Shown in pieces: positions 16,572-34,249 of a stretch of DNA of 64,000 nucleotides. Made by a program: the position numbers and the translations under genes. How positions within the stretch are numbered: the stretch's first letter is position 1; the number at the start of each line of letters is the position of its first letter. The notes beneath the pieces are model-generated. The model saw only the letters and a list, made by a program, of their open reading frames with translations, had not been told where the DNA came from and made no database searches. Source of the DNA: an uncultured bacterium (lineage in GTDB: Bacteria; Zixibacteria; MSB-5A5; GN15; FEB-12); the NCBI GenBank assembly GCA_965372795.1, contig CBDVDR010000013.1, positions 1 to 64,000 of the forward strand, written 5' to 3'.

Positions 16572-16901
16572 ATGAATATCTATGTAGGTAACATGTCTTA
16601 CGATTTGACAGAAGACTCATTGCGAGAAGCTTTTGAAGGTTTCGGTGAAGTCTCAAGTGTAAACATCATCATGGACCGAGACAGCGGAAGACCTAAAGGT
16701 TTTGGATTTGTCGAAATGGCAAATGACACTGAAGCTTCGGCAGCTATCGAAGGTCTTAATGGTAAAGAATACAACGGCAGACAGCTTAATGTAAATGAAG
16801 CTCGCCCAAAAAATAATGATCGTGGCGGTCGTGGCGGCGGCGGTGGCGGCGGACGCGGCGGCGGCGGCGGCGGACGTGGCGGTTACGGTAATCGTTACTA
16901 A
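16572..16901 (+). CDS. RRM RNA-binding protein with Gly-rich tail
   Basis: RNP2 IYVGNM, RNP1 [18 protein letters not shown]-repeat tail; ATG at 16572 follows GGAG. Confidence 0.93.
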
Positions 16902-19247: not shown

Positions 19248-20795
19248 TTACATCAAACTTGTTCGCATATTCATATCAAGGTGCATTATCCAAAGTGACA
19301 CAAATGAGAAAAGCACCATCGCTACCAAGAGTGGAATTTGGGCTATAAATGATTTTTTCCCAACCCCAAACATTTTCTCTCCGGCCTTAGCGGCTATTTT
19401 GATTCCGATGATATGTCCGGTTACCACTAACATGATTTGTAGAATCCACACGGTAGTATCCCCCAATAGCATTGGGTATACTTTCCCTATTGTGCCGAAC
19501 AAATCCCACCCGTAACCAAACGGATCTGATAAGAGAGGGATTACCATCTGTCCCTCCATTGCAACATGCATCCCGTTATGAGCCAGATGATAAAATAAGG
19601 CGATTGGAATTAAGCTATAAGAGAAACGAATAAATATTTCTTTTGTGGAAATTCCGTTGTTTGATATTTTAGATGATAAAAAGCAAAGCAGATAATAAAT
19701 AAGAAACGGAATTAGTAATATCGCTGTCATGCCTACGGTAAAGGAAAACAGGGGTCCTAAACCAAAATAAGAATTTAAAAATGAAATAATTGAATCACCG
19801 CCCGAGGTTAAATCTTCCCATACCGGAGTCATGGTTAAACCATGAAAAGATGTCAATGATAAAAGGATAACGGCTAAAATTGATTCATCGGTTCTTGGAC
19901 GAGGATAATCAAGAATATCAGCTGCGAATGGTCGAATATTTAAAGCGACATTATCCTCAGGGCATGACTTAAAACATTCGGTACACATGATACAATATGT
20001 ATTTTCATTTAAACCGGTAAGATTTAATCCGGTCGGACAAGGATAACCCTTTGAGTTACCGTTGTAGCATTCCTTAGTTGTACAGCTGGCACAGACATCA
20101 CGGTTTTTGGCACGGATTTCTATCGGAGAAATATTAGCATACAGACCGGAGATTCGACCAATCAAACAGCCGTATCGGCAAAAAGATTTTTTTTCAAATA
20201 TGAAAATTGGCAGGATAACCATCAGCGCCATTGCCAGTCCCATGATCGCAGTGGCGAAAGGATTATTTGTAACTTTGTATCCTAGCTCAAGCCAGGTAAG
20301 AATTATAAATAAACCGATGGCAAGAACTATGTTTCGCGCCCATGGCGGCCATTTAAGATTCAACGAAAGCGGTTCTTTATTCACATTCCAGAATCGTAAA
20401 TGACTGACAAAAGAAGCAATCATATCCCAGGGACACATGAAGCACCAGATTTTCCCAAAGAGGAGAATCGCAAAGATTAACCCGCCCCACCAGATCGTCC
20501 AAGTTAAGGCCGGTCCGATATTTATTTGCGGGTTCCCAAATAACCCGGCATAAATAATTACGGCAAATAAAAATAATATCGGTAACTGAAAGACAAATTG
20601 TATCCAGCGTCTTTTTACGAGCCAGTCGATAACCGGTATTTTTGTTAGATCAATACGGAGTTTGGATTTTTTCCCGGGGTTAACAAAATAAAATAGAAAA
20701 GAGATGCCTAATACAAGCCCTATACCGGAAAAAAACATCCAGTCAGGATTCCCGGGCATCATATGGATGCCATTTTCAATTTTACAACAATCCAT
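19248..20795 (-). CDS. Polytopic membrane 4Fe-4S binding protein (NapH/YccM-like polyferredoxin)
   Basis: GKIWCFMCP, FCRYGC, CASCTTKEC and CIMCTECFKSCP motifs plus many TM helices. Confidence 0.75.
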   Translation of the reverse strand: MDCCKIENGIHMMPGNPDWMFFSGIGLVLGISFLFYFVNPGKKSKLRIDLTKIPVIDWLVKRRWIQFVFQLPILFLFAVIIYAGLFGNPQINIGPALTWTIWWGGLIFAILLFGKIWCFMCPWDMIASFVSHLRFWNVNKEPLSLNLKWPPWARNIVLAIGLFIILTWLELGYKVTNNPFATAIMGLAMALMVILPIFIFEKKSFCRYGCLIGRISGLYANISPIEIRAKNRDVCASCTTKECYNGNSKGYPCPTGLNLTGLNENTYCIMCTECFKSCPEDNVALNIRPFAADILDYPRPRTDESILAVILLSLTSFHGLTMTPVWEDLTSGGDSIISFLNSYFGLGPLFSFTVGMTAILLIPFLIYYLLCFLSSKISNNGISTKEIFIRFSYSLIPIALFYHLAHNGMHVAMEGQMVIPLLSDPFGYGWDLFGTIGKVYPMLLGDTTVWILQIMLVVTGHIIGIKIAAKAGEKMFGVGKKSFIAQIPLLVAMVLFSFVSLWIMHLDMNMRTSLM

Positions 20796-21347
20796 TTAAG
20801 AAACCCTGATTCTATTTTTGTTTTGTTTTTTACGAATTATTCCCGTGATAGCAGCGAAAACCATGACACTTGCAATTGAAAGCACAAGATAAAGCCACAC
20901 ATTATTTTTGCCACCGACCTTCATTTCGAATAAAACATTATGTACTTTTACAGTGTCAGCAAATGTTACCCGAACAAAATAATCACCCTCTTCTTCATAC
21001 ACCCAGCCGACCTTATATATATTGGTTTGGTTTCGAAAGGCGGTATAGGGATGGGAGTCCTCGGGGTCTTCATGTCTTCCAAAAACTAAAAATACAACTG
21101 GTTCAGTAAACGGAAGATCATTGATTGTGTCACGCACGTAGACGGCTAAATCAAATGCAGTTTTAGCAGGAATTTTATAGTATGTGAAAGTGACTTCATA
21201 TTGAGAAACATTTTGAATCACTTCATAGACCGGAGTCTCAGGATAATTATCACGATAACTATAATGAGGTATTCCTCGAATATGATGGCAGTCACCGGAT
21301 TCAACCGTAATCAATAATAAAATAATTATTAATAATATTTTTTTCAT
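20796..21347 (-). CDS. Exported, C-terminally anchored hypothetical protein
   Basis: Signal peptide, HHIRGIPH near the mature N-terminus, C-terminal TM helix with basic tail. Confidence 0.7.
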   Translation of the reverse strand: MKKILLIIILLLITVESGDCHHIRGIPHYSYRDNYPETPVYEVIQNVSQYEVTFTYYKIPAKTAFDLAVYVRDTINDLPFTEPVVFLVFGRHEDPEDSHPYTAFRNQTNIYKVGWVYEEEGDYFVRVTFADTVKVHNVLFEMKVGGKNNVWLYLVLSIASVMVFAAITGIIRKKQNKNRIRVS

Positions 21348-21348
21348 A

Positions 21349-22242
21349 TCAACCCTTAATTCTTATAACATTTTTTAAAGCATTTCTATTATTATCATTA
21401 CAGGCATCTATACATAATGAACAATTATCACACTCGGGAGGGAAAATTCCCTCCGCCGGTTTTAAATCATAAGGACAAGCCGGATTACAGACACCGCATA
21501 AATCACATTTTGATTTAATTCTCTCTATTCGCCAAACCCTCCATCGTCCTAACAAAGAGAACAGCGCGCCTCCGGGACACAAACGACGACAAAACAGATG
21601 CGGTGAAATTATAATTTCTCCGAGCCACAAAAAAATGATAAAAATCAAACCAGAAGTAATAAATCCGGATAGGATCAAATGGTAGATAGCTTCAGTAAAA
21701 ATTCGCGGTGGATAGATCAGGGTAGTAATTGGAATAGAAATAACTGAGCCCATGAAAAGTGAAATAATCAAATAAAACAGAGGTGTTTTGGCGGGTAGAT
21801 CAAAATGAAAATATTCGATTCCAAACTTTCTTAATAAAACCGTAATGCTTTTCCCAATTTCAGCAAAGAAAGAGTAGGGACAAATCCAGGAACAAAAGAA
21901 CCGGCCAAATAAAAGTATTAACCCAAGCGGAATTAATATTGACAGGAACAAGGTCAGATTAAATTCTAAAGCTGTTACGGTTGAGACCAGGAAAGCCAAC
22001 GGATCGGATAATGATAGAATAAAGAATCGAAAGCTCCAAAGTCCTCCCTCAAAATCACCTTGGAAGAGCATCGGTTTATTTTCATCTCCGAAAACATAAT
22101 CATACATAATCAAAATTGTTGATTCTTCTATTTCAAACTCTGCCCCGATTTGCCCAGCCTTTTTTTCGTATAAGTTATAATACACAAGAGCCACCATCAG
22201 AAACAGAACCAGGCAACGGGTGAAAATTCTATATTTTCTCAC
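21349..22242 (-). CDS. napH: NapH/MauN-type membrane ferredoxin (quinol dehydrogenase subunit)
   Basis: DPLA, GRFFCSWICP, FCRRLCPGG, CDLCGVCNPACP, CDNCSLCIDAC. Confidence 0.8.
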   Translation of the reverse strand: MRKYRIFTRCLVLFLMVALVYYNLYEKKAGQIGAEFEIEESTILIMYDYVFGDENKPMLFQGDFEGGLWSFRFFILSLSDPLAFLVSTVTALEFNLTLFLSILIPLGLILLFGRFFCSWICPYSFFAEIGKSITVLLRKFGIEYFHFDLPAKTPLFYLIISLFMGSVISIPITTLIYPPRIFTEAIYHLILSGFITSGLIFIIFLWLGEIIISPHLFCRRLCPGGALFSLLGRWRVWRIERIKSKCDLCGVCNPACPYDLKPAEGIFPPECDNCSLCIDACNDNNRNALKNVIRIKG

Positions 22243-22840
22243 TGGTTGCCTCCTTCAAATCATCATGATGCACTACTCGTATTGCCTGGGGATAATGAAT
22301 ACAGGCTTGTTCGCATAACCCGCAACCAACACACTTATCAGTTACGACCGGTTGCTCCCAGGTGTCCCCCCAAATAGCGATGCCATCGTATGGGCAGGCA
22401 AAAACACAAACCCCGCATACATATCCGTTAAATGAATTACAAATATTTTTATCTACAACTGCTTTTCCGATTTTAACTTTTTTTAGAATTACATCCGGAT
22501 CATCCGCAATCGGCACCAAAGCTCCACTGGGACAGGTGTTATTGCATTTCATACATAAGATGCATCCTTTTTCGCGAGGTATAAAATGAGGCGTACCGGC
22601 TAATACCAGATTGAGAGTATCAAAGTATTTAATTGTTTCATTTGGACAAACCTGACCGCAACGGCGACATCGAATACATTTTTCTAAAAATTCTGTTTCA
22701 GCTAAAGCCCCGGGCGGTCTGAAGGGAGGTTTTTTTCTTTTTGGTATTAACTTTATGAAGCTATACCAGCTTCCTCCAAGAAGAGCCGTTGAGGGAATCA
22801 ACGATGCAAAAAATGCTTTTAAAAAATCTCTTTTATTCAT
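22229..22840 (-). CDS. napG: NapG/MauM-type periplasmic ferredoxin
   Basis: KRDFLK Tat-like leader, RPPGA..E.EFL..CIRC, four Cys clusters. Confidence 0.82.
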   Translation of the reverse strand: MNKRDFLKAFFASLIPSTALLGGSWYSFIKLIPKRKKPPFRPPGALAETEFLEKCIRCRRCGQVCPNETIKYFDTLNLVLAGTPHFIPREKGCILCMKCNNTCPSGALVPIADDPDVILKKVKIGKAVVDKNICNSFNGYVCGVCVFACPYDGIAIWGDTWEQPVVTDKCVGCGLCEQACIHYPQAIRVVHHDDLKEATSEKI

Positions 22841-22909
22841 TGTACCAAAAAGAACTGTCCAACGATTGTGCCGGACAGTTCTTCATTTATAAACCCAAAA
22901 AGTAAAAAA

Positions 22910-25570
22910 CTAAATCTTCTCAATTCGAGCAGCAAGTTTCTTAAAGTCAACCTGACCGGAAACCGGATCATAAGCCCGATGTGAGGTTGCATTGACCAGC
23001 CATTTGTTTTTCTTCGGATCAGCTGAATCAGCAACCGATAAATTCCATGGTGAAAATATATATCCCCGAGGAACTTCATTACGCGATGGTTTAATTTTTG
23101 AACGAATACCTCCGACCGAAACCCGTGCCTCATAATGTCCGCGACGGGTGTGAATCCGAATCTTATCACCATCGTTCAGACCATTGATTTCGGCATCTTT
23201 TGGATGCATCTCGACATACTGTTCAGGAACCAACCGTCTGGTTGTAGCACCTCTGATTGTTTTGGCAGTATGGAAATGTTCATAGACAATTCCCAAGCCA
23301 AGCCAGAACGGATATTTCCCTTTTGGAACCGATTTCCAATGTTTCTGGCATTGTTCAAAATCAGGGAGTTCAGGAGTTAACGCCATATCACGAGCCTGTA
23401 TTAAAACATCTTCATGATCAACAGCATAGTAACCTTCTACAGTTCCCATTTTCTCAAGTTCTTTCATAACTTTAGCACGATTGGTATAATCCTGTCGGCA
23501 AACTTTGAAATGCATCTTGCCATCAGGTTTACGGAACATGCCATACGGTTTATCAGCCCATTCTTCCTGACCCATAAAGCGTCGCGCAGTGCCGCCTTTT
23601 TTTGCAATTTCATAAGTAGCCGCCGGCCATTGTATACCTCGAAGGCGGCGCAATTGATCATATAGACCGATACCATCACGGTCGCGAACCTCAAGCATCC
23701 CTGTCATATCACAGTCAGTCCCTTTGGAGCCTTTGACAATTTCATCAAAAACTTCTTCTGAATCATACAATTCGGGACCGTCTGGATGAAATCGTTTTTT
23801 CTTATATGGGAAAATCTTATCCCCATCCATCCCTAACAGATTAGCCATCATCTTCCCTTTATCAATAGCCATATCCAAATCAGGAACGCAGTTTTCAAGT
23901 CCCGGGGCACCCTTGCCAACTCCATCAACGACATTAAAACGTCGTTCAGATGAAATATAGGTTCCACCCGGCCATTCGCCCCAGGTAAGGGCAGGGAAAA
24001 TAACATCGGCATATAAGTTATTGGGGGCATGACGATAAATATCCTGCACCACGACAAACAACTTTTTCAATGCCGGACGAATCAAATTATTTAAATCAGG
24101 TTGATGAATATGGGTTGTGTACATATAGAACATACCCTTAACATCACCTTTTAAAGCCCGTTCAAACAGACCTACCATCATTCCGGGATTTTTTTCCTTG
24201 TTGGCAAGATCTAGCTGTCCTGGAGGTAAATTCCAAACTTTATTCATCCATTCACGGTGCTTGTCATCTTTGAGAGCAACGTTATAAGGCAGTCTTCCGG
24301 TTAGACCGCCCATTAATCTTTCACCCATCGCATTCGGTTGTCCGGTCATCGAAAATGGTCCGGCTCCCGGACGTCCAAGATTTCCGGTTAGAGCGTGCAG
24401 ATTGATAATACTGATCACATTGTGTTGACCGTGGATGTGCTGGTTATAGCCAATTCCCCAGAAAGAAATAACGCCGCCTTTGCCGCGTTTTTTTCCTTTG
24501 ACAGAAGCTTTTGCCCATTGGGCAGCAACTTTACGGATTAAGGCAGGTTCGACCATGGTACGATCCTGTACCTGTTCGGGAGAATATTCTTCTTTCATCA
24601 CTTTGATATATTCTTCCCAGCCATTGGCATGGTTTTTCAAAAATTCATAATCAATAGCTTCCGGATGATCCTTGATAATCACATGAGCGATAGCATTCAA
24701 AATTGATATATCGCCGTTGATTGTCTGGAAGTGAGTAGAATTTCTTGGATTAATAGCTTCCAACGCCTGAACCGTGCCGGTTCGACGAGGGTCAACCACA
24801 ACTGTCGGAATTCCATTTTTCTTTTTATGGTCGGCTACTCTCCAAAAAACAATTGTATGAGACGCACGAGCATTATGTCCCCAGTGAGTAATCATGTCGG
24901 ATTCTTCAATATCATCATAAGACATTGGAGGAGTATCCGAACCAAAGGTTGCAAAATACGCTGTAACGGCTGAAGTCATACAGGTCCGGGCATTAGCTTC
25001 AATAGAGTTAGAACCTAAAACTCCTTTTACCAGTTTATTCTCAATCCATTGAGCTTCCACAGTTAACTGACCAGAACCATACAGACCGATTGAGTTCCCA
25101 CCATGAGCATCGTAGATAGCTTTCATTTTTTCGCCGACAATACGTTCACCTTCTTCAAAAGAAACTTCCTCAAACATATCATCGTCAAAACCGCCTTTGG
25201 TTTGCGACTCATAACCTGTCAGAGGGTCGGACATATCTTTCCGAATCAGAACTTTGTCCAGACGATCCACATAGGTCGGTTCATCTGCATTCAGACCTTT
25301 AATGCATTGAACCCCTTTGTTGGTTGGATGTTGTTTATCCGGTACAACCCCCAAAATACGACCATCTTTAGCGGCTTTAATTACTGTGCCGCACCCTACA
25401 CCGCAGTACGGGCATTGGGCGAGAATATTTTGTGCAACCGGTGAAACACCCGTTGCTTCGGCTAAAATCTCTTCGGGTGAAAAGATTGCTGAGCCTAAGC
25501 CTATCGAGGCGGCGCCTGCGACAGAGCCTTTTAAAAAATTACGTCTGTTGATAGAGCCTTTCTTCCCCAT
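22910..25570 (-). CDS. napA: Tat-exported molybdopterin nitrate reductase catalytic subunit (NapA/NasA family)
   Basis: NRRNFLK signal; CPYCGVGC...C FeS motif; YGSGQ; NARTCM Mo ligand (Cys-Met); TGQPNAMG; C-terminal DPVSGQ. Confidence 0.8.
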   Translation of the reverse strand: MGKKGSINRRNFLKGSVAGAASIGLGSAIFSPEEILAEATGVSPVAQNILAQCPYCGVGCGTVIKAAKDGRILGVVPDKQHPTNKGVQCIKGLNADEPTYVDRLDKVLIRKDMSDPLTGYESQTKGGFDDDMFEEVSFEEGERIVGEKMKAIYDAHGGNSIGLYGSGQLTVEAQWIENKLVKGVLGSNSIEANARTCMTSAVTAYFATFGSDTPPMSYDDIEESDMITHWGHNARASHTIVFWRVADHKKKNGIPTVVVDPRRTGTVQALEAINPRNSTHFQTINGDISILNAIAHVIIKDHPEAIDYEFLKNHANGWEEYIKVMKEEYSPEQVQDRTMVEPALIRKVAAQWAKASVKGKKRGKGGVISFWGIGYNQHIHGQHNVISIINLHALTGNLGRPGAGPFSMTGQPNAMGERLMGGLTGRLPYNVALKDDKHREWMNKVWNLPPGQLDLANKEKNPGMMVGLFERALKGDVKGMFYMYTTHIHQPDLNNLIRPALKKLFVVVQDIYRHAPNNLYADVIFPALTWGEWPGGTYISSERRFNVVDGVGKGAPGLENCVPDLDMAIDKGKMMANLLGMDGDKIFPYKKKRFHPDGPELYDSEEVFDEIVKGSKGTDCDMTGMLEVRDRDGIGLYDQLRRLRGIQWPAATYEIAKKGGTARRFMGQEEWADKPYGMFRKPDGKMHFKVCRQDYTNRAKVMKELEKMGTVEGYYAVDHEDVLIQARDMALTPELPDFEQCQKHWKSVPKGKYPFWLGLGIVYEHFHTAKTIRGATTRRLVPEQYVEMHPKDAEINGLNDGDKIRIHTRRGHYEARVSVGGIRSKIKPSRNEVPRGYIFSPWNLSVADSADPKKNKWLVNATSHRAYDPVSGQVDFKKLAARIEKI

Positions 25571-25577
25571 TAGAAGA

Positions 25578-28085
25578 TTACTCCTTTCCCATCTTTATAT
25601 AAGAGATGATATCATTTATTTCTTTTGAACTAAGTTCAGTTAATCCGGCATTCCCTCGAATCATCGACTGCATCGCCGTCTGGTGGCGACCCAGTGACAT
25701 CGTTGCCTGCAGATACCCGACCGGGACTGCTTTTACAAAAGCCGAACGCATCAAGTCAGGTGCGAAGGAACCTCTTTGATGACATTGAATGCACTGGCTT
25801 TCATAGATAATTTTTCCGTTTTGCGGAGTGCCGACAATATATTTTTGACCGATTTCTGATTTTTCTTTATTTCTCAAATAATAGGTAATTGACATCGCCG
25901 TATTCATATCAAGTTCCACGATCCCCCCGCGACCAAATTTTTTCATTTCGGTTCCATCACGTCCGGACATCATCATTGCGATAATAAATCCGTCAGAGAC
26001 CGATTGCAAAAATCCTTCTTTACCGATACCGGGACCATTGCCGCCGCCTCCGCCTTCGCCATGACATTGAGCACACATCCGACTGAATTCATCCCGCCCG
26101 TTATCAAGATCTCCGGGGATGGTACTTATCCCTCTCAAGTCAGCTGGATTTTTTTCAAGGGTTCTGATATAGCTGACAATATCATTCAATTCTCTTTTGC
26201 TCAAATCAGAGGTACCGCTCTGTCCATGAAGATTTCCCTTCATTTGGCTACCGGAACGACCGTAGGCTGCCATCATCCAAATATATTCATCCGATGCATA
26301 AGCAAGGAAATCTATGCTTCCAATTGCCGGACCGTTCAAGCCAACGCCTTGTTGGCCATGGCACTGGGCACAAGTTCGTTCGAATAAATGTTTACCGTTA
26401 AATTCAGAACCGTTAATTTTCTTTTTACTCGTACCGGTAATTGAACCGGAATATCCGGAACGTAAATATGCTGTTATATCGGCGAGGCTTTTTTTACCAA
26501 GATAATTATATGATGCCATCGCTGTATTACGACGCCCTTTAACAAGGGTGTTATACAAGAATTTATTATCAGCTAACTTTAGAAATTCTTCCGAGTTTAA
26601 CGATGGTCCAATCCCGCCCTCTTTTTCATCACCATGACAGGAGGCACAGTTTTCATAAAATAATCTTTTACCTTTGTTACTTGAACCATATTGAACAGCA
26701 TTTGCAAACGAGTTGTATCTTATTGTTTTATCTCGCCAACTATCAAGATACTCCATCAGATCAGCAAGTTCCTGCACCGACAAGAAATTCCACGCCGGCA
26801 TCGCCGTACCGGCTCTGCCATTTACAATCGTTTCATAAAATTGTTCACTATCAAAGGTCGATAACAATTGCGGTGAATTCAATGTCGGTCCGATTAAATC
26901 CGTTTCATAATCTCCGTCAATACCATGGCAACCGGCACAATTCGCATTAAAAGATATGCGACCATAATCTGCTACACCAATGGTAGATTCAATTTCTTCA
27001 AATGGTTTAGGTTTCTTTCTTAAACTTAAGACAAAGTCAGATATTTTTGAAATTTCACTCTTAGAAAGTCCGCCGCCTGAACCCCAGGCAGGCATAACCG
27101 AAGAACCGGAACCACTGATAATTGCTGATAAGAAATCATTATCAACAATTGCCAAAAATTGAGGATTTCCCAAGGCCGGACCGAGTTTTCCGATCTCGGT
27201 CAGATTTGTACCCTTGCCGTTTTTTCCATGGCAGGCGGAACAGTTACTCATATATAAATCCCGACCGCTCTTTTCAACATGACCCGAGGCGGCAATCATT
27301 CCTTCCGGGACAGAGAATTCCTGAAATGATTTTAAATAAACAGTTAGATCCATAGCTTCCTGTTCAGTGAAACCATAATTGATCATTTGTGAAGAATCCG
27401 GCTGGATCTTTGGTTGATAAACAGCTTCAAAGAGATACGCCAGATTTACATTACCATTAAACTTTTCAATTAAATCATGATTATCTTCATGCGGACGTTT
27501 TTCATGAAAAGAAGCCTGACCGATGGTTGTTAACTCCGGTCCAAGGGAGCCCCCTCGTCCTTGAACAGAATGACAACTTTGGCACCCGTTTTCAATAAAC
27601 AATCGTTTACCTTTTTGGTATGCCCCGGTGACTTCCGGCATTTCTGAACGATGACAACGGGCACAATTAGATTCTAAGTATGGCGATAAAAGAACCGGTT
27701 CTTCCCAATATAGTTCTTTTTTATGAGCAAGGGCATCAGTCAGCGTAGTTGCCCGACCCTGCCCGTCATGACAAATTGTACATCCGAATTGATCCGGATC
27801 GTGATCATTTAGATAATTCCCTGGATGAACAGCCAGCGGGTTATCCAATTCTTCAGCATTTGGATTTGTTATCCCTACATGGCAAATAACACACCGATCA
27901 ATTTTATCTAAATGGGGCAAAACCAACTGCCGATAATCTACATTAAAATCAAAACCTTTTTCAGAAACAAAATCAGCATACTCGGTTTGATAGTCCCGCC
28001 AATCCGTTGTTAAATATTCCTGTACTGCACCGTATATTAAAAAAACGATAACGACTAAACTGGATATAAACATTATTTTTTTCAT
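25578..28085 (-). CDS. Membrane-anchored decaheme cytochrome c
   Basis: N-terminal TM helix; 10 CxxCH motifs (CVICH, CTICH, CARCH, CQSCH, CSACH, CAGCH, CASCH, CAQCH x2, CIQCH). Confidence 0.88.
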   Translation of the reverse strand: MKKIMFISSLVVIVFLIYGAVQEYLTTDWRDYQTEYADFVSEKGFDFNVDYRQLVLPHLDKIDRCVICHVGITNPNAEELDNPLAVHPGNYLNDHDPDQFGCTICHDGQGRATTLTDALAHKKELYWEEPVLLSPYLESNCARCHRSEMPEVTGAYQKGKRLFIENGCQSCHSVQGRGGSLGPELTTIGQASFHEKRPHEDNHDLIEKFNGNVNLAYLFEAVYQPKIQPDSSQMINYGFTEQEAMDLTVYLKSFQEFSVPEGMIAASGHVEKSGRDLYMSNCSACHGKNGKGTNLTEIGKLGPALGNPQFLAIVDNDFLSAIISGSGSSVMPAWGSGGGLSKSEISKISDFVLSLRKKPKPFEEIESTIGVADYGRISFNANCAGCHGIDGDYETDLIGPTLNSPQLLSTFDSEQFYETIVNGRAGTAMPAWNFLSVQELADLMEYLDSWRDKTIRYNSFANAVQYGSSNKGKRLFYENCASCHGDEKEGGIGPSLNSEEFLKLADNKFLYNTLVKGRRNTAMASYNYLGKKSLADITAYLRSGYSGSITGTSKKKINGSEFNGKHLFERTCAQCHGQQGVGLNGPAIGSIDFLAYASDEYIWMMAAYGRSGSQMKGNLHGQSGTSDLSKRELNDIVSYIRTLEKNPADLRGISTIPGDLDNGRDEFSRMCAQCHGEGGGGGNGPGIGKEGFLQSVSDGFIIAMMMSGRDGTEMKKFGRGGIVELDMNTAMSITYYLRNKEKSEIGQKYIVGTPQNGKIIYESQCIQCHQRGSFAPDLMRSAFVKAVPVGYLQATMSLGRHQTAMQSMIRGNAGLTELSSKEINDIISYIKMGKE

Positions 28086-28094
28086 AGTTTTCCT

Positions 28095-29663
28095 CTAATG
28101 TGCCGGCCATAGTGAGGGCCACCAATAAAAGTCCCAGTTTGGTCCCCGATGTTGGTATGCAAAATAAGTTAATATGGCAAAGCCAACTATAAAGCAGGTG
28201 AAAATCGCCTGTGCTCCCAATCGAGTTGAATCTGTTTTATTCAAAACGCGAATTGACCACCAGACAAATAATCCGGTTATAACCGTTCCGGGATTTATCA
28301 GCACAATTAATATTTGAGGAATACCCGGGAACCAACTTCTAAGCCAGCCGAAATTTACCGTAAAGATCAGCATTGCTAATATGACTGCTGTTGAAAAAAT
28401 CACCGAACTTTTAAAGATGGATCGTTCATCTTTATCAGGAAACCATACCCCCGACTCATTGCGGGTTTTATCCAAAAATGGGATTAACATTAATCCTAAT
28501 ACTGCAAGCCCCGGAATAAATACTCCACCCATGAACGCCGAATAGGAGACTAACTCCTGAAGCCCGAGGAAATACCACGGAGCTTTAGCCGGATTTTCCG
28601 GTACCGCCGGATTAGCCGCTTCTTTCAAAGGAGCATCTCCGAAAAATGAGAGCACGACTACAATAGCAAGGATTAATGCAAATATAGCCATCTCAGAATA
28701 GAACAGATTCGGCCAGGTTTGAACAGTTTGATTAGGGCTGTTTTTTACATTGTTACTTTTTCCTTTTACAAGGCACATCAATCCATACGTTTTACCTTCT
28801 GTTGGAAATGCCATCTCAGCCAGTTCATCTTTGGGTGTTCCCGCAAGCATCTCCTCAGTAACAACCGTTGGTCGTGACATCCCCCCATCTTTTCTAATTC
28901 TCCAGAAATGGACGCCCATAAACCCAATTAGAATTAATGGCAGGAAAATACAGTGAAGAAAATAAAACCTTATGAGGGCTTCTTCACCGACAATATCCGC
29001 CCCAAGTAAAAGTCGTTTTTGCATCCCTCCAATATCCATCAATTTTGTAATGCCCAGCGCATCGGTAACTTCTACGGGTGAACCCGCAATTTGCGCTCCG
29101 ATGGTTGTTGCCCAATAAGCTAATTGATCCCACGGCAGAAGGTATCCGGTAAACGACAACCCCAGAGTAACCGCAAAAAGAACAATCCCAACAACCCAGT
29201 TAAACTGGCGGGGATGTCGGTATGATGCGGTCATGAACACTCGTATCATATGAAGAATGACTGTGATTACCATGACATGCGCCGCCCAGCGATGGATATT
29301 GCGCATCAAGCGCCCGCCCGGGACAGCATAATGAATATCTTTAATTGAATTATATGCCTGTGCCAGAGACGGTTTATAATAGATCATGAGTAAAACGCCG
29401 GTAATCACAAGAATAACAAATGCCGCCGCCGATGCCACACCCAACCCAACTGTAAAAGTTTTTTTAAAATTATAACGGTGGGTCCGCACTGAATGAATAT
29501 GCAAAAACAGGTTCGAAAAAACTGATTGTGAGGCAGCCCGATTAGATGAGCGCGGTCCATGCCGAACAGTTGCATCTTTGAAAGACCGGGGCAGATTCTT
29601 TAAGTTCTCAAGGAATATATCCAGACCGGATTGTTTTTTGTCTTGATCGGAAGAATTAGACAT
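28095..29663 (-). CDS. qcrB: Cytochrome b of a Rieske/cyt b complex (b6-like + subunit IV fused)
   Basis: IHRWAAH and LHC...VHF heme ligands, SFTGYLLPWDQLAYW, APWYF Qo-site motif. Confidence 0.88.
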   Translation of the reverse strand: MSNSSDQDKKQSGLDIFLENLKNLPRSFKDATVRHGPRSSNRAASQSVFSNLFLHIHSVRTHRYNFKKTFTVGLGVASAAAFVILVITGVLLMIYYKPSLAQAYNSIKDIHYAVPGGRLMRNIHRWAAHVMVITVILHMIRVFMTASYRHPRQFNWVVGIVLFAVTLGLSFTGYLLPWDQLAYWATTIGAQIAGSPVEVTDALGITKLMDIGGMQKRLLLGADIVGEEALIRFYFLHCIFLPLILIGFMGVHFWRIRKDGGMSRPTVVTEEMLAGTPKDELAEMAFPTEGKTYGLMCLVKGKSNNVKNSPNQTVQTWPNLFYSEMAIFALILAIVVVLSFFGDAPLKEAANPAVPENPAKAPWYFLGLQELVSYSAFMGGVFIPGLAVLGLMLIPFLDKTRNESGVWFPDKDERSIFKSSVIFSTAVILAMLIFTVNFGWLRSWFPGIPQILIVLINPGTVITGLFVWWSIRVLNKTDSTRLGAQAIFTCFIVGFAILTYFAYQHRGPNWDFYWWPSLWPAH

Positions 29664-30120
29664 AAAACTGTTCCTTTGTTCCGGTTTTAACAGCTTTGCT
29701 CATATCAATGGCTAATTGACCTGATGGAAGTTTCTCAATTTTGTGCCATAATAAACCTTTTGGTGCCGGACCCTGAACTATTTCACCTTTTAAACCGAAT
29801 TTTGAACCGTGGCAGGGACAATCAAAACCTCTGCCCGACCACTTTACAACACATCCTAAATGGGTGCATGTCGTAGATATAGCAAAAATTCCTTCATCAT
29901 CTGCGAAAAGAACTACTCTCTCTTTCTCAAAAATTTTGACTGATCCGGCGGGATAATCAGCAGGCATCCCCAGTTTTATTTTTTTTGATTCCTGCGGTAA
30001 CAGGGTCGGCATGGTAAACTTTGCTAAGGCTCCGCCCCATACTAATAATGAACCCCAAAAGGTTGCAGGAGCATATTTGCTTATAAAGTTACGCCGTGTT
30101 TCTTTTTTCTCTTCCATCAT
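29656..30120 (-). CDS. qcrA: Rieske 2Fe-2S subunit
   Basis: TRRNFI Tat anchor; CTHLGC and CPCHGS boxes; GPAP; start at 30120 or 30117. Confidence 0.9.
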   Translation of the reverse strand: MMEEKKETRRNFISKYAPATFWGSLLVWGGALAKFTMPTLLPQESKKIKLGMPADYPAGSVKIFEKERVVLFADDEGIFAISTTCTHLGCVVKWSGRGFDCPCHGSKFGLKGEIVQGPAPKGLLWHKIEKLPSGQLAIDMSKAVKTGTKEQFYV

Positions 30121-31954
30121 TACCACCTATTTCGCAAAAAGTAACTCTTTCCATTGTAATAGCACCAACCGGACAACGATCAACGCAGCATGCACAACGA
30201 ATGCATTTTGTTTCATCCTTAATAATTGCTGAATCAGCTTCTGAAAATCCTGCTTCGTGTAAATCAAAATTATTTTCAATTGCCAACTTAGCAACATCTA
30301 CCAATTGAAGACACAACTCGGGGCAAACATCAGCACATCCCCCGCACAAGACGCAAGCCTCGCCATTAAAAATTGTGTTCACACCACAATCAAGACAGCG
30401 AGCAGCCTCATTGACGACATCCATTTGTGTATAGCCAAGCTCAACCGCCGGACGCACCTGTTTGAGTCGATCCCGGACTTCCAAAACAGGGATATTCTGT
30501 CTTTGGGTTTCTTCATAGGAGGCTTCACGGGCATAATTATCAATAATTGCGTGGGCTATGTTAAACTCATGCTTCTGTTTCATGCCTGTTAATTGTGATG
30601 CGATTGTAGTTGCAACTTTTTTCCCATCAGCAACCGCATCAATTACCAATTTTGTACCGTAGGCACAGTCACCGGTAAAAAATATGTCAGGAACGGATGT
30701 TGATCCATCAGGACTGACCTCTACCATGCCGAAATTATTAAATACCAGCTGATCGCGCTCCGGATTTATAAATGACAGATCAATCTGCTGACCGATAGCC
30801 ATTAAAATATTGTCACATTCAATCTCAATTATATCAGCCTCATCAAACTGTGGAGCAAATTTCCCCTGATCATTAAGTATTGATAAACATTTTTTAAATT
30901 TTATACCAACCAGCTTATCATTTTTAATTATTACTTCATGAGGACCGACTGAATTTATACGAACGATGCCTTCCTCTTCACCTTCAACAATTTCGGTTTC
31001 GTCAGCCATCATCTCTTCAAGTGATTCCAGGCAACAAAGATGTACTTCCCGGACTCCTTCAATTCTTTTTGCCTGACGTGAGATATCGAGTTGTTCATAC
31101 CTTAAAGCCGACCTTCCGATATCATAAGCGACTGAGCCGCCGCCAATCACGACTATTTTTTCACCTAATTCAATATTTTTATCCAAATAGAAATCTCGCA
31201 AAAATTCAACTCCGCCCAAAACTTTCGAATGATCAAATCCCGGCATAGGCAATTTCCTTGATCGTTTGGCACCGACAGCGACAACCACTGCATCAAAATC
31301 TCTTGTCAACTGATCAAATAAAACATCTTTGCCAACAGTTGTATTGACCTGAAATTCCACCCCTAGGGCTTTGATAATATCAACTTCGCGTTGAATTATT
31401 TCCCGTGGTAAACGATAATCAGGAATGCCAACTGCAAGCATCCCCCCGGCAATCGGTTCAGTTTCAAAAATAATTGATTCTATTCCATAAAGAGCAAGAT
31501 CATGAGCGCAGGCTAAACCGGCCGGACCGGAACCTATAATGGCAACTTTTTTGTTAGATTTAGGAATATCATGATTTATTGATGTTAACTCATTTGAAAG
31601 CAAATTTTCACGATTTGAAACAAATGAACGAATATGATCCAACACCTTCAAAACCTGGGCATCACTATGAGCGGTGTGATACTGTTCGGATGCGAATCTT
31701 TTTAAAGCTCTAATAGAAACCGGCTTATCAATATCACCCCGGCGACAATTAACTTCACAAGGTGCCGCACAAATCCGTCCGCAGATAGAAGCCAGCGGAT
31801 TGGGACCCCGGGCAATCAAGTATGCCTTTTCGTAGTCACCCTGTGCCAAAGCACGAATATATCCGCGTGCATCTGTCCCTACCGGGCAGGCAGACTGACA
31901 ATTAATCAGGTCGAGCCAATACTGGTCATCAGGTACGTTTACAGAATAAGGCAT
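30089..31954 (-). CDS. NAD(P)H-dependent FAD/FeS oxidoreductase (GltD/NfnB-like) with C-terminal 2x[4Fe-4S] domain
   Basis: CQSACP...CGRICAAPCEVNC; GSGPAG; GGGSVA; EAARCLDC; CVLCGGCADVCP; CIRCACCVDRCP; no signal peptide. Confidence 0.85.
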   Translation of the reverse strand: MPYSVNVPDDQYWLDLINCQSACPVGTDARGYIRALAQGDYEKAYLIARGPNPLASICGRICAAPCEVNCRRGDIDKPVSIRALKRFASEQYHTAHSDAQVLKVLDHIRSFVSNRENLLSNELTSINHDIPKSNKKVAIIGSGPAGLACAHDLALYGIESIIFETEPIAGGMLAVGIPDYRLPREIIQREVDIIKALGVEFQVNTTVGKDVLFDQLTRDFDAVVVAVGAKRSRKLPMPGFDHSKVLGGVEFLRDFYLDKNIELGEKIVVIGGGSVAYDIGRSALRYEQLDISRQAKRIEGVREVHLCCLESLEEMMADETEIVEGEEEGIVRINSVGPHEVIIKNDKLVGIKFKKCLSILNDQGKFAPQFDEADIIEIECDNILMAIGQQIDLSFINPERDQLVFNNFGMVEVSPDGSTSVPDIFFTGDCAYGTKLVIDAVADGKKVATTIASQLTGMKQKHEFNIAHAIIDNYAREASYEETQRQNIPVLEVRDRLKQVRPAVELGYTQMDVVNEAARCLDCGVNTIFNGEACVLCGGCADVCPELCLQLVDVAKLAIENNFDLHEAGFSEADSAIIKDETKCIRCACCVDRCPVGAITMERVTFCEIGGNDGREKRNTA

Positions 31955-32046
31955 TACTATCCTGTTTATTATTAAGTTTAAAAAACTACATCAAAAGCGA
32001 TAACGGAAATGCATTTAAATAATATAGAGTTTATAGGGCTATAAAC

Positions 32047-32060
32047 TTGACTTAAGTCAA
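32047..32060. promoter_or_regulatory. FNR/Crp-family-like palindromic operator
   Basis: TTGACTTAAGTCAA perfect palindrome (TTGAC-N4-GTCAA; FNR consensus is TTGAT-N4-ATCAA) between divergent operons. Confidence 0.55.
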
Positions 32061-32104
32061 TGCATTCAATCTTAATTAAGACTTTTTTAAGTCTAAATAA
32101 ACTA

Positions 32105-32193
32105 TCTCCGAACTCCGGAAGACCCCTGTGGCCGCCGGAGACTCTACGGCCGGAAGAGCAATTTTCCGACCTGCCCGGTATTGGCAAAGGAGA
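32105..32193 (+). ncRNA. Molybdenum cofactor (Moco/Tuco) riboswitch-like RNA motif
   Basis: 5' TCTCCGA pairs with 3' GGAGA; 3' segment CCTGCCCGGTATTGGCAAAGGAG resembles the Moco motif; lies upstream of Moco genes. Confidence 0.7.
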
Positions 32194-32242
32194 CTATCTG
32201 GATATGATGTCATGTCTTAGCCAACCGGTTAAGGCTTTTTTT

Positions 32243-34246: not shown

Positions 34247-34249
34247 TAA

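Follow-up and report, generated by a model that had tools for sequence, protein, structure and literature searches.

A flavoprotein-Rieske-cytochrome b-multihaem cytochrome c module encoded in one operon with a Nap-like molybdoenzyme: a candidate quinol:nitrate oxidoreductase

Introduction

Periplasmic nitrate respiration that depends on a bc complex and on a Q-cycle is known from Campylobacter jejuni (PMC6195509), and in Caldithrix abyssi Rieske/cytochrome b genes have been reported within a nap cluster (PMC5317091). The Q-cycle coupling of such respiration, part of the original prediction for the locus studied here, thus has a precedent in the Campylobacter system. An NAD(P)-flavoprotein on a quinol-oxidising complex has so far been discussed mainly for anammox bacteria. 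In their architecture, the cytochrome b, Rieske protein and flavoprotein of the present locus match the NAD(P)-linked Rieske/cytochrome b complexes of those organisms. Here we describe the operon, found in a window of 64,000 nucleotides (the whole stretch of DNA analysed), and ask what it may encode.

Results

Gene content, motifs, synteny and phylogeny were observed directly. The operon runs on the minus strand from 31954 to 19248 and its nine ORFs were all confirmed, in agreement with the predicted nine co-directional, mostly abutting genes. Packing is tight. Three junctions overlap, by 38 nt (flavoprotein/Rieske), 8 nt (Rieske/cytochrome b) and 14 nt (NapG-like/NapH-like), and four more span 0-9 nt: 9 nt between cytochrome b and decahaem cytochrome, 7 nt between decahaem cytochrome and molybdoenzyme, 1 nt between the NapH-like and the 183-aa gene, and none between the 183-aa and 515-aa genes, which abut. 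Molybdoenzyme and NapG-like genes are separated by 69 nt. The predicted absence of napB and napD from the window was confirmed, and neither gene was found elsewhere in the 98.65%-complete genome; napC is likewise absent from the window, NapC/NirT-type domains occurring in the genome only within larger multihaem ORFs on other contigs. The genome also encodes complex I, two HAO-like ORFs and 34 ORFs with at least three CxxCH motifs, and has the look of a multihaem-rich respirer.

Between the operon and its divergent upstream neighbour (31955..32059, no strand assigned), the sequence shows at 32047-32060 a palindrome of 14 nt without mismatches, which is of the CRP/FNR half-site type. The pattern matched once in the window with 0.78 matches expected, and three times in the genome compared with two for a control pattern, so the count alone is not significant. 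A divergent molybdenum-cofactor operon follows (32060..37990, plus strand), with Pfam matches to MobA, MobB, MoaA, MoaC, a MOSC-domain protein, a MogA/MoaB-like protein, MoeA and a MOT1-type molybdate transporter. This operon accompanies the nine genes and lies outside the cassette: the adjacency is not preserved in the related genome G010, and cofactor genes also flank the molybdoenzyme in loci L007 and L017.

The first gene (30089..31954, minus strand) encodes a cytoplasmic NAD(P)/FAD iron-sulfur flavoprotein of 621 aa (Pfam Fer4_20, Pyr_redox_2, Fer4_7), built around a GltD/NfnB-type core for FAD and NAD(P), which is preceded by an N-terminal helical domain with 2x[4Fe-4S] and followed by an additional ferredoxin domain, also with 2x[4Fe-4S], at the C-terminus. 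It scored 396 bits against NCBIfam PRK12771, under the cut-off of 516. The closest solved structures were 9bov/9bp5, reported as the relative of Kuste4570 in PMC12954380, followed by 8oh5 and the NfnI large subunit 5jca.

The Rieske [2Fe-2S] protein of 156 aa (29656..30126, minus strand; Pfam Rieske, E 1.2e-12) has an RRNF Tat-type anchor, and the cluster boxes CTHLGC and CPCHGSKF (Ser/Phe pair). Its closest solved structures are 9rk4_A (E 1.6e-17) and 9rk3_A (E 8.1e-17), which we take to be Kuenenia Rieske proteins. Together with the flavoprotein match, this bears out the anammox parallel drawn in the original prediction. Kustd1480 shares the Ser/Phe pair (PMC12954380).

The fused cytochrome b of 522 aa (28095..29663, minus strand; Pfam Cytochrome_B, NCBIfam ExtP/ExtQ below cut-off) combines a b6-like four-helix part with a subunit-IV-like part. 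Five hydrophobic segments were recognised by eye, and a conserved N-terminal extension is predicted to be cytoplasmic. When residues were placed by alignment to spinach b6, the haem ligands H124, H138, H237 and H252 and additionally H55 were invariant in all 38 flavoprotein-linked cytochrome b sequences among the matches listed. H55 is missing from the second cytochrome b of the same genome, is present in a Scalindua-labelled split homologue, and agrees with the additional haem that models of the Kuenenia complexes place at the interface (PMC12954380). The b6 haem-ci cysteine position is occupied by G73 and thus lacks a cysteine, whereas the Kuenenia models are said, in the same source, to retain haem cN. 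The Rieske gene followed the flavoprotein gene in 51 of the 52 metagenome loci, among the matches listed, that had at least 206 nt after the latter. Because of this linkage and the invariance of H55, we consider the flavoprotein likely to be a bound subunit of the membrane complex.

The decahaem cytochrome c of 835 aa (25578..28085, minus strand; Pfam Cytochrome_CBB3 in 6 stretches) is membrane-anchored and consists of an N-terminal hydrophobic anchor, three close CxxCH motifs and seven class-I monohaem domains, with the ten CxxCH motifs at residues 65, 102, 141, 168, 282, 383, 480, 572, 671 and 765. Residues ~465-645, holding haems 7 and 8, align with dihaem cytochromes whose genes stand directly upstream of the molybdoenzyme in 9 of 16 clade loci among the matches listed, none of which has bc genes; a NapC/NirT gene is adjacent in two of them. 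This homology and the adjacent NapC/NirT genes suggest that the bc module takes the place of a NapC/NirT/dihaem-type donor. Wiring from bc module through decahaem cytochrome to molybdoenzyme, as predicted, is therefore plausible from synteny and from this homology, and we lean towards the decahaem cytochrome feeding electrons to the enzyme.

The Tat-exported bis-MGD molybdoenzyme of 886 aa (22910..25570, minus strand; TAT_signal, Molybdop_Fe4S4, Molybdopterin, Molydop_binding) reached 344 bits against a NapA model with a cut-off of 904 and 326 bits against one with a cut-off of 930. E. coli NapA (2nya, E 7e-77) is its closest solved structure, and the Cys ligand motif and pocket Arg align with it. 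By phylogeny it falls in a monophyletic clade (clade X; SH-aLRT 100, stem 1.33) that is separate from and sister to NapA, making it an unstudied relative of periplasmic nitrate reductase. With scores far under the NapA cut-offs and a clade of its own, it is not a canonical NapA. Of the 95 columns that Nap and Nas both conserve, clade X retains 67, and 27 of these 67, including residues around the Mo ligand, are absent from the formate dehydrogenase rows; going by these alignments the active-site motifs are of nitrate-reductase type. Six fixed clade X substitutions adjoin the catalytic motifs near the active site: A to R235, N to T486, T to N517, W to F766, E to L/F419 and R to V/I761. In three of five genomes examined clade X coexists with an above-cut-off NapA, one of these cases being Photobacterium frigidiphilum with two copies, and a fourth has a NapA just under the curated cut-off. 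This coexistence hints at a different, non-redundant role, possibly with another substrate. A PF00384 search of the present genome found no other exported molybdoenzyme, its other two matches being NuoG and a NuoEF-linked fusion. The surroundings of homologues have an N-oxide character: Rrf2 regulators stand immediately upstream in both L003 and L005, the latter also having a hemerythrin, and there is a NarX/NarL-type pair in L009, a globin in L041 and a Crp-family regulator in L013.

Downstream follow a NapG-like periplasmic poly-[4Fe-4S] ferredoxin of 203 aa with a KR-type Tat-like leader (22229..22840, minus strand; NCBIfam NapG) and a NapH-like integral membrane iron-sulfur protein of 297 aa (21349..22242, minus strand; TIGR02163, Pfam Fer4_5). 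The predicted assignment to NapG and NapH holds as a likeness, with both scores below the curated cut-offs (121.6 bits against 269 for NapG and 108.8 against 213 for TIGR02163). The NapG-like gene stands directly 3' of the molybdoenzyme gene in all 15 clade loci with downstream sequence among the matches listed, and by synteny the enzyme is invariably accompanied by the pair, whatever the form of the locus.

The predicted unknown exported protein is a C-terminally anchored beta-sandwich protein of 183 aa (20796..21347, minus strand; structure model, pLDDT 83), for which neither Pfam nor NCBIfam gave a match. All nine homologues compared carry H21 and H22 unchanged, this His-His pair standing at the predicted mature N-terminus. 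Its model aligned to HftA, PA0388, Tp34, CrdA and FtrA-P19 with VIA-align Z of 11.6-12.6, compared with about 8-9 for generic Ig/FnIII rows, and in the Atlas it lay nearest to YtkA-like clusters (score 0.95). Judged from the model it is probably a P19/CrdA/HftA-like metal (Cu/Fe) binding or chaperone protein. The last gene encodes a membrane protein of 515 aa (19248..20795, minus strand; weak NapH match, 39 bits), and the polyferredoxin predicted here turned out to be a NapH/CcoG-type part with CxxCP and 2x[4Fe-4S], fused to a His/Met-rich C-terminal helical membrane domain. Invariant residues are C118/C121/P122, C206/C210, C235..C278, H318, H403, H406, H410, M508 and M510, and homologues in L004 and L005 carry two to three N-terminal YHS metal-binding domains; its model (pLDDT 77.5) gave no convincing fold match.

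Locus counts were taken from the best 80 of 562 and the best 80 of 584 candidates, include near-duplicates such as L145/L147 and are not population frequencies. The full nine-gene order was found in 4 of 16 clade loci among the matches listed, in one sublineage, and in three other phyla. The genomes concerned are MAGs of Gemmatimonadales, Planctomycetaceae, Phycisphaeraceae and Calditrichaceae (the sequence of L003 ends after napG), and metagenome contigs L146 and L162 have the same order. G010, a second genus of the same family, has the nine genes at 76-86% identity with unrelated flanks. Since the flanks differ and the order is kept across phyla, the nine genes travel together, and on this synteny they move as one cassette within the sublineage. 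The molybdoenzyme was present in 2 of 41 related genomes and is thus an accessory trait. Among the matches listed, 27 metagenome loci extended for 3.5 kb or more beyond cytochrome b, and in these we found in the slot behind the flavoprotein-bc module an NxrA-like enzyme in ten (7b04_B, E 1e-265), a PcrA-like type II, perchlorate-reductase-like enzyme in nine (5e7o_A, E 1e-293), NarGH and NosZ in one each, clade X in two and no recognised enzyme in four. A non-clade-X enzyme thus occupied 21 of the 27 slots and any terminal reductase 23. From its occupants, the slot serves a high-potential terminal enzyme. Each half occurs without the other, so the halves appear modular; the predicted co-conservation of the two is not general and holds as one cassette in the sublineage and in the second genus of the family.

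Discussion

The nine genes very probably form a real joint system. We see an even chance that the operon encodes one dedicated quinol:nitrate oxidoreductase, in which a mobile flavoprotein-Rieske-cytochrome b-multihaem c module is joined to a Nap-like module. The electron-transfer steps, the substrate, the binding and the direction at the flavoprotein are what we infer. The fused cytochrome b would oxidise menaquinol at its P-side site, and one electron would pass via the Rieske cluster to the membrane-anchored decahaem cytochrome. Its haem 7/8 pair, the putative counterpart of the dihaem cytochrome serving the enzyme in bc-less operons, would hand the electron via the [4Fe-4S] cluster to the Mo-bisMGD of the exported enzyme, which would reduce nitrate to nitrite. 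The second electron would cross the membrane via the two b haems and, by way of the N-terminal extension with H55, enter the flavoprotein at its iron-sulfur chain and FAD. There we favour NAD(P)+ reduction powered by the strongly exergonic nitrate branch, as proposed for anammox; by this analogy net NAD(P)+ reduction is a tentative assignment. With nitrate at about +420 to +430 mV (PMC6195509 and PMC10100899), the anammox energetic scheme in PMC12954380 would apply a fortiori.

The anatomy would suit the opposite direction equally well: NAD(P)H as donor, with electrons passing from the iron-sulfur chain of the flavoprotein over the b haems to an N-side quinone site, would make the complex a self-contained NAD(P)H:nitrate oxidoreductase incorporating its own quinone loop. 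Such transfer is energetically favourable, since NAD(P)H lies at -320 mV and menaquinone at about -70 mV (PMC12954380), and NADH synthesis by an uphill route would seem less necessary in this organism because the genome already has complex I. However, it is hard to see why a non-pumping NAD(P)H dehydrogenase should be attached to a bc complex, the module consistently goes with very high-potential acceptors, as a bifurcating uphill branch needs and a simple donor does not, and among solved structures the flavoprotein comes closest to bifurcating enzymes of the Nfn type. We therefore regard this direction as unlikely.

Returning to the quinol:nitrate reading, the molybdoenzyme may reduce another high-potential oxyanion (chlorate/perchlorate, selenate or iodate), nitrate being at most a side substrate. 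The separate clade with its long stem and six fixed substitutions, its coexistence with canonical NapA, the perchlorate-reductase-like enzymes in the same slot and the unusual metal-handling accessory genes, which a plain Nap does not explain, would fit this, and the NapA of C. jejuni is likewise able to reduce chlorate and perchlorate (PMC12769810). Against it, most residues that the two known soluble nitrate reductase families have in common, and do not share with formate dehydrogenases, are preserved, regulators of N-oxide types (Rrf2, NarXL-like) lie close to homologues, and the enzyme is the sole candidate respiratory molybdoenzyme of this genome. We thus hold another oxyanion to be improbable, and nitrate to be the more likely substrate on the motif evidence.

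The two halves could also be independent neighbours, the NapG/NapH-like pair alone feeding the enzyme and the bc-decahaem module serving HAO-like octahaem proteins or extracellular electron transfer. Each half is found alone, the enzyme gene always has the NapG-like and NapH-like ones behind it, and the many multihaem and two HAO-like ORFs offer possible acceptors. Against this stand gaps of just 7-9 nt from cytochrome b to the molybdoenzyme, the joint movement of the genes between genera and their order in other phyla, the enzyme's dihaem partner module within the enlarged cytochrome, and a terminal reductase at the same position in 23 of the 27 flavoprotein-anchored loci among the matches listed; we consider independence quite unlikely. 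That the system runs backwards, the molybdoenzyme oxidising e.g. nitrite and the complex making quinol or NAD(P)H by reverse electron transport, is very improbable despite the reversible NXR-type enzymes in the same slot, since Nap/Nas-type enzymes are known as reductases, electrons at ~+430 mV need a large energy input to reduce quinone or NAD(P)+, and the organism looks like a multihaem-rich anaerobic respirer.

In the favoured quinol:nitrate scheme, the NapG/NapH-like pair may offer electrons an additional path, from quinol or across the membrane, or act as a redox maintenance device. As the pair is always present, it may also be the sole quinol dehydrogenase, and the bc link would then be redundant. 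By their looks, the P19-like and the 515-aa proteins would make up a metal-handling pair.

Layout and gene content of the operon

The nine open reading frames were arranged in tandem on the minus strand, between positions 31954 and 19248 of the window. Three of the junctions were overlaps (38, 8 and 14 nt), four further junctions were spaced by 0–9 nt, and the only wider one was a gap of 69 nt between the molybdoenzyme gene and the NapG-like gene. The flavoprotein gene overlapped the Rieske gene.

Pfam and NCBIfam searches assigned the first product to the GltD/NfnB-type FAD/NAD(P) flavoproteins; its N-terminal part is a two-cluster domain, and a further 2x[4Fe-4S] domain is added at the C-terminus. 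It was followed by a Rieske protein and by a cytochrome b of 522 aa, whose first half was b6-like and whose second half matched the subunit-IV-like family ExtQ below the cut-off. Next came a cytochrome c of 835 aa with ten CxxCH motifs and an N-terminal anchor (the decahaem cytochrome), a molybdopterin enzyme with a Tat signal, a NapG-like and a NapH-like protein, a protein of 183 aa without a family in either database and a membrane protein of 515 aa with a weak NapH-like match in NCBIfam. The NapG-like protein scored 121.6 and 103.3 with the curated NapG models (cut-offs 269 and 178.85), and the NapH-like protein scored 108.8 and 102.1 with the NapH models (cut-offs 213 and 234). Both were thus under the curated cut-offs, and they are relatives, not equivalogs, of NapG and NapH.

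The coordinates and family assignments bore out the nine-gene co-directional operon of the original prediction. Its statement that napB and napD were missing could be extended beyond the window, as profile searches with PF03892 and PF03927 found neither gene in the whole 98.65%-complete genome. For napC the statement held for the window, but a NapC/NirT-type domain was present on two other contigs of the genome (C12 and C7), in each case only as a part of a larger multihaem ORF. A scan for promoter-like sites (48, with 38.6 expected) and terminator-like sites (16, with 13.6 expected) was uninformative.

The molybdoenzyme belongs to a clade beside NapA

When compared with the curated NapA models the molybdoenzyme scored 326 bits with TIGR01706 (cut-off 930.55) and 344 bits with NF010055 (cut-off 904), below both thresholds. 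Homologues from two other gene neighbourhoods, L010 and L004, scored similarly low, and a formate dehydrogenase model of NCBIfam scored the molybdoenzyme almost equally to the NapA models. Its best match among solved structures was E. coli NapA (2nya, E 7e-77), with which the cysteine Mo-ligand motif and the pocket arginine aligned. The domains TAT_signal and Molybdop_Fe4S4 were present, corresponding to a Tat leader and an N-terminal four-cysteine [4Fe-4S] motif; C53, C56, C60, C89 and C197 were invariant. Homologues at 56–88% identity were numerous and came from many phyla. Identity then dropped to 26–33% for the next group of relatives, which consisted of NapA (26–28%) and NasA/NarB.

A tree of 55 rows including NapA, Nas and Fdh sequences was calculated by a quick LG+G4 search with SH-aLRT support and no bootstrap. 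The 29 clade rows were monophyletic (SH-aLRT 100, stem 1.33) and stood outside the NapA group. The sister of the clade was formed by the six NapA rows with a support of 88; Nas came next and the formate dehydrogenases lay outside. Within the clade the window enzyme grouped with the bc-linked loci L003–L005 (support 99).

To describe the active site we used 95 alignment columns that were kept in 6/6 Nap rows and in at least 85% of the Nas rows. The clade kept 67 of these columns and the four formate dehydrogenase rows kept 54. Of the 67, 27 were not shared with the dehydrogenases, and these included the surroundings of the Mo ligand and the arginine-containing loop, and clade-fixed substitutions were found at six positions adjoining these active-site motifs. 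We read the active site, from the alignment, as probably of the nitrate-reductase type with an altered pocket. An assignment as formate dehydrogenase was rejected in view of the Cys-Met ligand motif and the Nap/Nas-specific columns. The enzyme had originally been named a periplasmic nitrate reductase; the Tat leader, the [4Fe-4S] motif and the cysteine ligand agree with that name, but the NapA cut-offs were missed and the enzyme falls in a separate clade.

The clade enzyme often coexists with NapA. Two NapA copies were found beside it in Photobacterium frigidiphilum JCM 12947, a cultured carrier of the enzyme without bc genes, and one each in Motiliproteus and a Calditrichaceae MAG, and a Planctomycetaceae MAG with the clade enzyme encoded a NapA just under the curated cut-off. 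In the window's own genome the operon enzyme was the sole exported molybdoenzyme in a PF00384 search; the other two hits were NuoG and a NuoEF-linked NfnB/Fdh-like fusion.

Canonical Nap sets consist of NapAB with NapC or NapGH and the chaperone NapD, the epsilonproteobacterial type being napAGHBFLD. The operon shares with them a bis-MGD enzyme that is exported by the Tat route, has its [4Fe-4S] cluster at the N-terminus and binds Mo through a cysteine, as well as NapG/NapH-like partners and an adjacent c-type cytochrome gene. It differs in that NapB and NapD are missing, in that the partner cytochrome is c4-like or decahaem, and in the presence of two extra conserved accessory proteins. The clade is widespread and includes a cultured Photobacterium. 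As the curated nitrate-reductase models miss it, its share may be underestimated when nitrate reduction is budgeted from genomes.

The two halves of the operon are separable modules

The flavoprotein, Rieske, cytochrome b and multihaem cytochrome c genes are here called the front module. In an enzyme-anchored survey of the genome collection we inspected the best 80 of 562 relatives, 16 of which fell in the clade. Front-module genes stood upstream of the enzyme in four of these 16 loci (Gemmatimonadales, Planctomycetaceae, Phycisphaeraceae and Calditrichaceae). In nine of the 16 a small dihaem cytochrome of 205–232 aa replaced the bc genes; carriers of this short form were Gallionellaceae, Motiliproteus, Photobacterium, Hyphomicrobiaceae, Rhodospirillaceae, Sericytochromatia and others. 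The remaining three had neither. A NapG-like gene followed the enzyme in all 15 clade loci with downstream sequence, and homologues of the 183-aa and the 515-aa protein were present in 9 and 10 clade loci, respectively, of this best-80 sample.

A flavoprotein-anchored survey covered the best 80 of 584 relatives in the metagenome collection. The Rieske gene came after the flavoprotein in 51 of the 52 loci with at least 206 nt behind it, followed by cytochrome b and a multihaem cytochrome wherever the sequence allowed. For 27 loci with at least 3.5 kb behind cytochrome b the terminal enzyme was tallied; since both surveys are best-80 samples and contain near-duplicates, the locus counts are not frequencies. 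An NxrA-like enzyme of about 1150 aa with a beta subunit was found in 10/27 (best match 7b04_B, E 1e-265), and a PcrA-like type II enzyme (DMSO-reductase family) with beta and gamma subunits and a chaperone in 9/27 (5e7o_A, E 1e-293; TIGR03479 above cut-off). NCBIfam identified NarGH in one locus and a dihaem cytochrome with NosZ in another. Two loci, L146 and L162, carried the clade Nap-like enzyme by BLAST to the window enzyme, and four had no recognised terminal enzyme. Behind the front module there was thus nearly always a terminal reductase of the periplasm with a very high potential, and the module looks like a general adapter for such reductases. Among the metagenome loci L111–L190 it stood directly ahead of five different terminal enzymes, for example at L145:15846–20422, L134:15383–20569, L112:15954–21189 and L118:15408–19201.

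The cassettes of the NXR type (e.g. L145, with an alpha subunit matching Kuenenia NxrA, 7b04_B) have the same four front-module genes in the same order as the operon, with a periplasmic high-potential molybdoenzyme directly behind. They differ in the Asp-ligated type II/NXR enzyme with its own beta and gamma subunits, in the lack of NapG/H-like genes and in a shorter cytochrome (6–7 haems).

Among 41 related genomes only two carried the enzyme. The second carrier (G010, from another genus) had the same nine genes at 76–86% identity between unrelated flanks, and thus the nine genes move as a cassette. It had been set out beforehand that a lack of co-conservation between the bc half and the nap half would speak against their functional link. 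The outcome was divided: the halves are modules, each existing without the other, but the nine-gene order is shared across phyla and with G010.

The bc half resembles the Rieske/cytochrome b complexes of anammox bacteria

The four haem histidines were kept in the operon cytochrome b, and its b6-like part aligned with spinach b6. Five hydrophobic segments were read by eye after residue 320, the b6-like and subunit-IV-like parts being fused. A glycine, G73, invariant in 38 sequences, aligned with the residue before b6 position 36, where no cysteine was found. This residue corresponds to Cys35 of b6, which we take to be the haem-ci ligand; the cysteine expected for haem cN (ci) of b6f was thus absent from the operon protein. 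A split cytochrome b labelled Armatimonadetes (P0358) had a cysteine at this position, so haem ci may persist in some family members.

A histidine in the N-terminal cytoplasmic extension, H55, was invariant in 38/38 flavoprotein-linked cytochromes b. It was also present in split b6-like homologues at 52–53% identity, one of them labelled Candidatus Scalindua, and absent from the second, ordinary Rieske/cytochrome b locus of the same genome. This second locus (L088, G000:C5:88000-102000, ORFs 6638–9453) had no flavoprotein and encoded a nonahaem cytochrome c; its cytochrome b contained the canonical PEWY motif, where the operon cytochrome b has APWY.

The two best solved matches of the operon Rieske protein were 9rk4 and 9rk3, which we take from their molecule names to be Kuenenia Rieske proteins. 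The best solved match of the flavoprotein was 9bov/9bp5. Two NAD(P)-linked complexes, Kuste4569-4574 and Kustd1480-1485, are described for Kuenenia stuttgartiensis, each combining an NAD(P) reductase and multihaem cytochromes with a cytochrome b of the b6 type and a subunit IV that has five helices instead of three; in that account 9bp5 is given as the closest solved relative of Kuste4570, a Ser/Phe pair is reported for Kustd1480, the Rieske potentials lie above +300 mV, and AlphaFold3 places an extra b haem between the N-terminal histidines of the cytochrome b dimer (PMC12954380).

Compared with these complexes as described there, the operon likewise encodes an NAD(P)/FAD iron-sulfur flavoprotein together with the Rieske protein, a b6-like cytochrome b with an apparently longer-than-usual subunit-IV-like part, and a multihaem cytochrome c where cytochrome f/c1 would otherwise stand. 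The Ser/Phe pair of Kustd1480 recurs in the operon Rieske protein, and the flavoprotein has 9bp5 as its nearest structure, as has Kuste4570. Together with the match to 9rk4/9rk3 this upheld the anammox parallel drawn in the original prediction. H55 may correspond to the extra-haem histidines His43/His62 of Kuste4571/Kustd1481, a likeness drawn from their description. Against the same description the operon differs in the fusion of the b6-like and subunit-IV-like parts into one protein of 522 aa without the haem-ci cysteine, and in ten cytochrome haems instead of a hexa- or octahaem cytochrome. At the terminal position a Nap-like molybdoenzyme, accompanied by NapG/H-like and putative metal-handling genes, replaces the HAO-like octahaem protein, and the genes inspected in the window's genome included no hydrazine-type genes, just two weak HAO-like ORFs.

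A complex prediction with two copies of cytochrome b residues 1–275 and flavoprotein residues 450–621 gave a score of 0.00, which, obtained without controls, counts neither way. Elsewhere in the genome (L086, G000:C1:76000-92000, ORFs 1867–7903) the gene behind a NuoE-like and a NuoF-like gene encoded a 1243-aa protein in which an NfnB/GltD-like module is joined to an Fdh/NuoG-like molybdopterin domain. The set resembles the Stn/Nfn-Bfu type complexes, which are the best solved relatives of the flavoprotein.

The decahaem cytochrome as putative link to the enzyme

The small dihaem cytochromes of the short form all aligned to decahaem residues ~465–645, i.e. haems 7/8, and the haem cysteines, histidines and axial methionines were invariant across this alignment. 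The decahaem protein therefore looks like an N-terminal anchor and a trihaem part of the kind that other cassettes have in their shorter cytochromes, extended by class-I domains which would include the molybdoenzyme's own partner module. A NapC/NirT gene was adjacent in two short-form loci, a hint that the bc module stands in for this quinol dehydrogenase. We infer, with homology and gene order as the main argument, that the decahaem cytochrome probably feeds the molybdoenzyme.

Accessory proteins and metal handling

The 183-aa protein had a signal peptide and was anchored by its C-terminus; two adjacent His residues at the predicted N-terminus of the mature protein were invariant. Its structural model reached a pLDDT of 83, with the N-terminal His-His in the low-confidence part. 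The fold matched HftA, Tp34, CrdA and FtrA-P19, periplasmic Cu/Fe-binding beta-sandwich proteins, with Z scores of 11.6–12.6, where generic Ig-like proteins scored about 8–9. The rmsd was 2.2–3.0 over 99–108 residues at a sequence identity of just 9–12%, and Foldseek matched the model to CrdA with E 2e-4.

In the 515-aa protein, cysteine motifs of the NapH/CcoG type and two motifs of the ferredoxin type were combined with a helical C-terminal domain, in which His and Met residues were invariant. Foldseek returned no match at E <= 0.001 for the whole-length model, which was longer than recommended, and the best VIA-align hits were helical bundles with Z = 6.4, within noise. Atlas proposed Caa3_CtaG with a score of 0.76, a lead only. 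In two planctomycete loci, L005 and L004, the 515-aa homologues carried two or three N-terminal YHS (metal-binding) domains (L005:14097–16373 and L004:15603–17630), which strengthens the idea of metal handling by both proteins. The 183-aa and 515-aa proteins look like a metal-handling pair. We know of no Nap or other nitrate reductase that needs or has such a pair, and its conservation may point to a cofactor requirement new for the enzyme family.

Proposed electron route and known systems

We propose, as a reading that could equally well prove right or wrong, that the nine genes specify a quinol:nitrate system of their own. Its Rieske branch would pass electrons through the decahaem cytochrome to the Nap-like enzyme, and the b-haem branch would be wired to the NAD(P) flavoprotein. 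The favoured direction, and the weakest step, is that NAD(P)+ would be reduced at the expense of the nitrate branch. We favour it because the front module is paired consistently with very high-potential acceptors and the flavoprotein belongs to the Nfn type, which is bifurcating. With the values given for menaquinol (approx. −70 mV) and NAD(P) (−320 mV; PMC12954380) and for nitrate (approx. +420 to +430 mV; PMC6195509, PMC10100899) the summed reaction would be favourable.

The alternative that NAD(P)H is the donor bears on this weakest step, and it has the high-potential partners and the Nfn-type flavoprotein to reckon with. Another oxyanion as substrate would be in keeping with the altered pocket and the separate clade, but it has to be set against the Nap/Nas-specific columns. 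Reverse operation of the route would have to run against the favourable sum. That the genes are independent neighbours draws on the separability of the halves, but chance juxtaposition was rejected in view of the conservation of the cassette across phyla.

The proposed quinol:nitrate route has partial precedents. In C. jejuni a Rieske/cytochrome bc complex, not NapC, is reported to feed menaquinol electrons to Nap, and the process is electrogenic (PMC6195509). As in the proposed route, a bc complex takes the place of NapC towards a periplasmic nitrate reductase. According to that report, QcrABC is general-purpose, serves also oxygen-linked and TMAO respiration, has no flavoprotein and works with a canonical NapAB, whereas the operon encodes its own bc complex, an NAD(P) flavoprotein, a decahaem cytochrome and an enzyme of another clade. 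In Caldithrix abyssi (Cabys_2564-2557) Rieske and cytochrome b genes lie within a nap cluster, and its authors proposed quinol oxidation by that complex with generation of a pmf (PMC5317091). The cluster is likened here by its description: like the operon it has napG, napH, Rieske and cytochrome b genes and no napB or napC; it differs in a tetrahaem NapM, the order napM-napA-napG...napH-Rieske-cyt b and an adjacent epsilon-Hao. A flavoprotein, present in the operon, is not mentioned in that description. A Calditrichaceae MAG in our survey carried both canonical NapA and the clade enzyme.

Known from these sources are a bc-dependent Nap (C. jejuni), a nap-Rieske/cytochrome b cluster (Caldithrix) and an NAD(P)-linked Rieske/cytochrome b (anammox). 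A literature search, with subscription journals and supplements outside its range, returned no description of the enzyme clade or the operon. Quinol bifurcation to NAD(P)H by a Rieske/cytochrome b complex is a proposal for anammox bacteria, which in 2025 was still argued from subunit structures and models only (PMC12954380). The operon and the metagenome tally show that the design is not an anammox oddity, since several phyla have it linked to reductases for N2O or of the nitrate or chlorate type; the bifurcation question thereby becomes testable in more organisms. Anammox bacteria are difficult to culture and manipulate. The tally points to the reaction that is probably the exergonic partner, and it offers more organisms for a test.

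A joint reading is offered more tentatively, and we would sooner expect it to fail than to hold. The front module would be a general quinol-bifurcating adapter in many phyla, bolted to a Nap-like, NXR-type, perchlorate-reductase-type, NarGH or NosZ reductase, and the clade would perhaps need a Cu/Fe-type delivery pair. Reduction of the oxidant would pay for the uphill reduction of NAD(P)+ while proton-motive force is still built. If this is true, the anammox hypothesis of NAD(P)H from quinol would become a widespread principle of anaerobic respiration.

Genomic context and regulation

Divergent from the respiratory operon lay a complete eight-gene operon for Moco and molybdate transport (32060–37990, plus strand), encoding MobA, MobB, MoaA, MoaC, MOSC, MogA/MoaB-like, MoeA and MOT1-type proteins. 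Moco genes also flanked the clade homologues in L007 and L017. The MobA domain began only at residue 69 of the first ORF, thus the true start may be further downstream and the intergenic region longer. A perfect 14-nt palindrome of the CRP/FNR half-site type was located at 32047–32060, some 93 nt ahead of the start codon of the flavoprotein gene. It was the only such site in the window, with 0.78 expected by chance, a count that is not significant. Rrf2 regulators stood directly upstream in two bc-linked clade loci, and other homologues had a NarX/NarL-type pair, hemerythrin, globin or a Crp-family regulator nearby. The neighbours of the clade homologues have an N-oxide flavour.

The nearest homologues with a name bore a truncated 'candidate division ...' label or belonged to Omnitrophica WOR_2 (74%). 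The genome contained 34 ORFs with at least three CxxCH motifs. Two of its ORFs encoded HAO-like octahaem proteins (L089:1631–3028 and L091:1526–2773) with weak hits to a hydrazine dehydrogenase model, one of them with a NapC/NirT-like N-terminal stretch. NrfA was not found in this genome, and the two HAO-like ORFs are candidate nitrite reductases.

At 40527–46166 of the window (minus strand) an ORF of 1880 aa with RHS repeats and DUF6531 was followed by two ORFs without a family, which looks like a polymorphic-toxin-type locus. Just downstream of the operon end a caspase-domain (Peptidase_C14) protein was encoded at 16986–17894 on the minus strand, and an RRM-domain RNA-binding protein at 16560–16898 on the plus strand.
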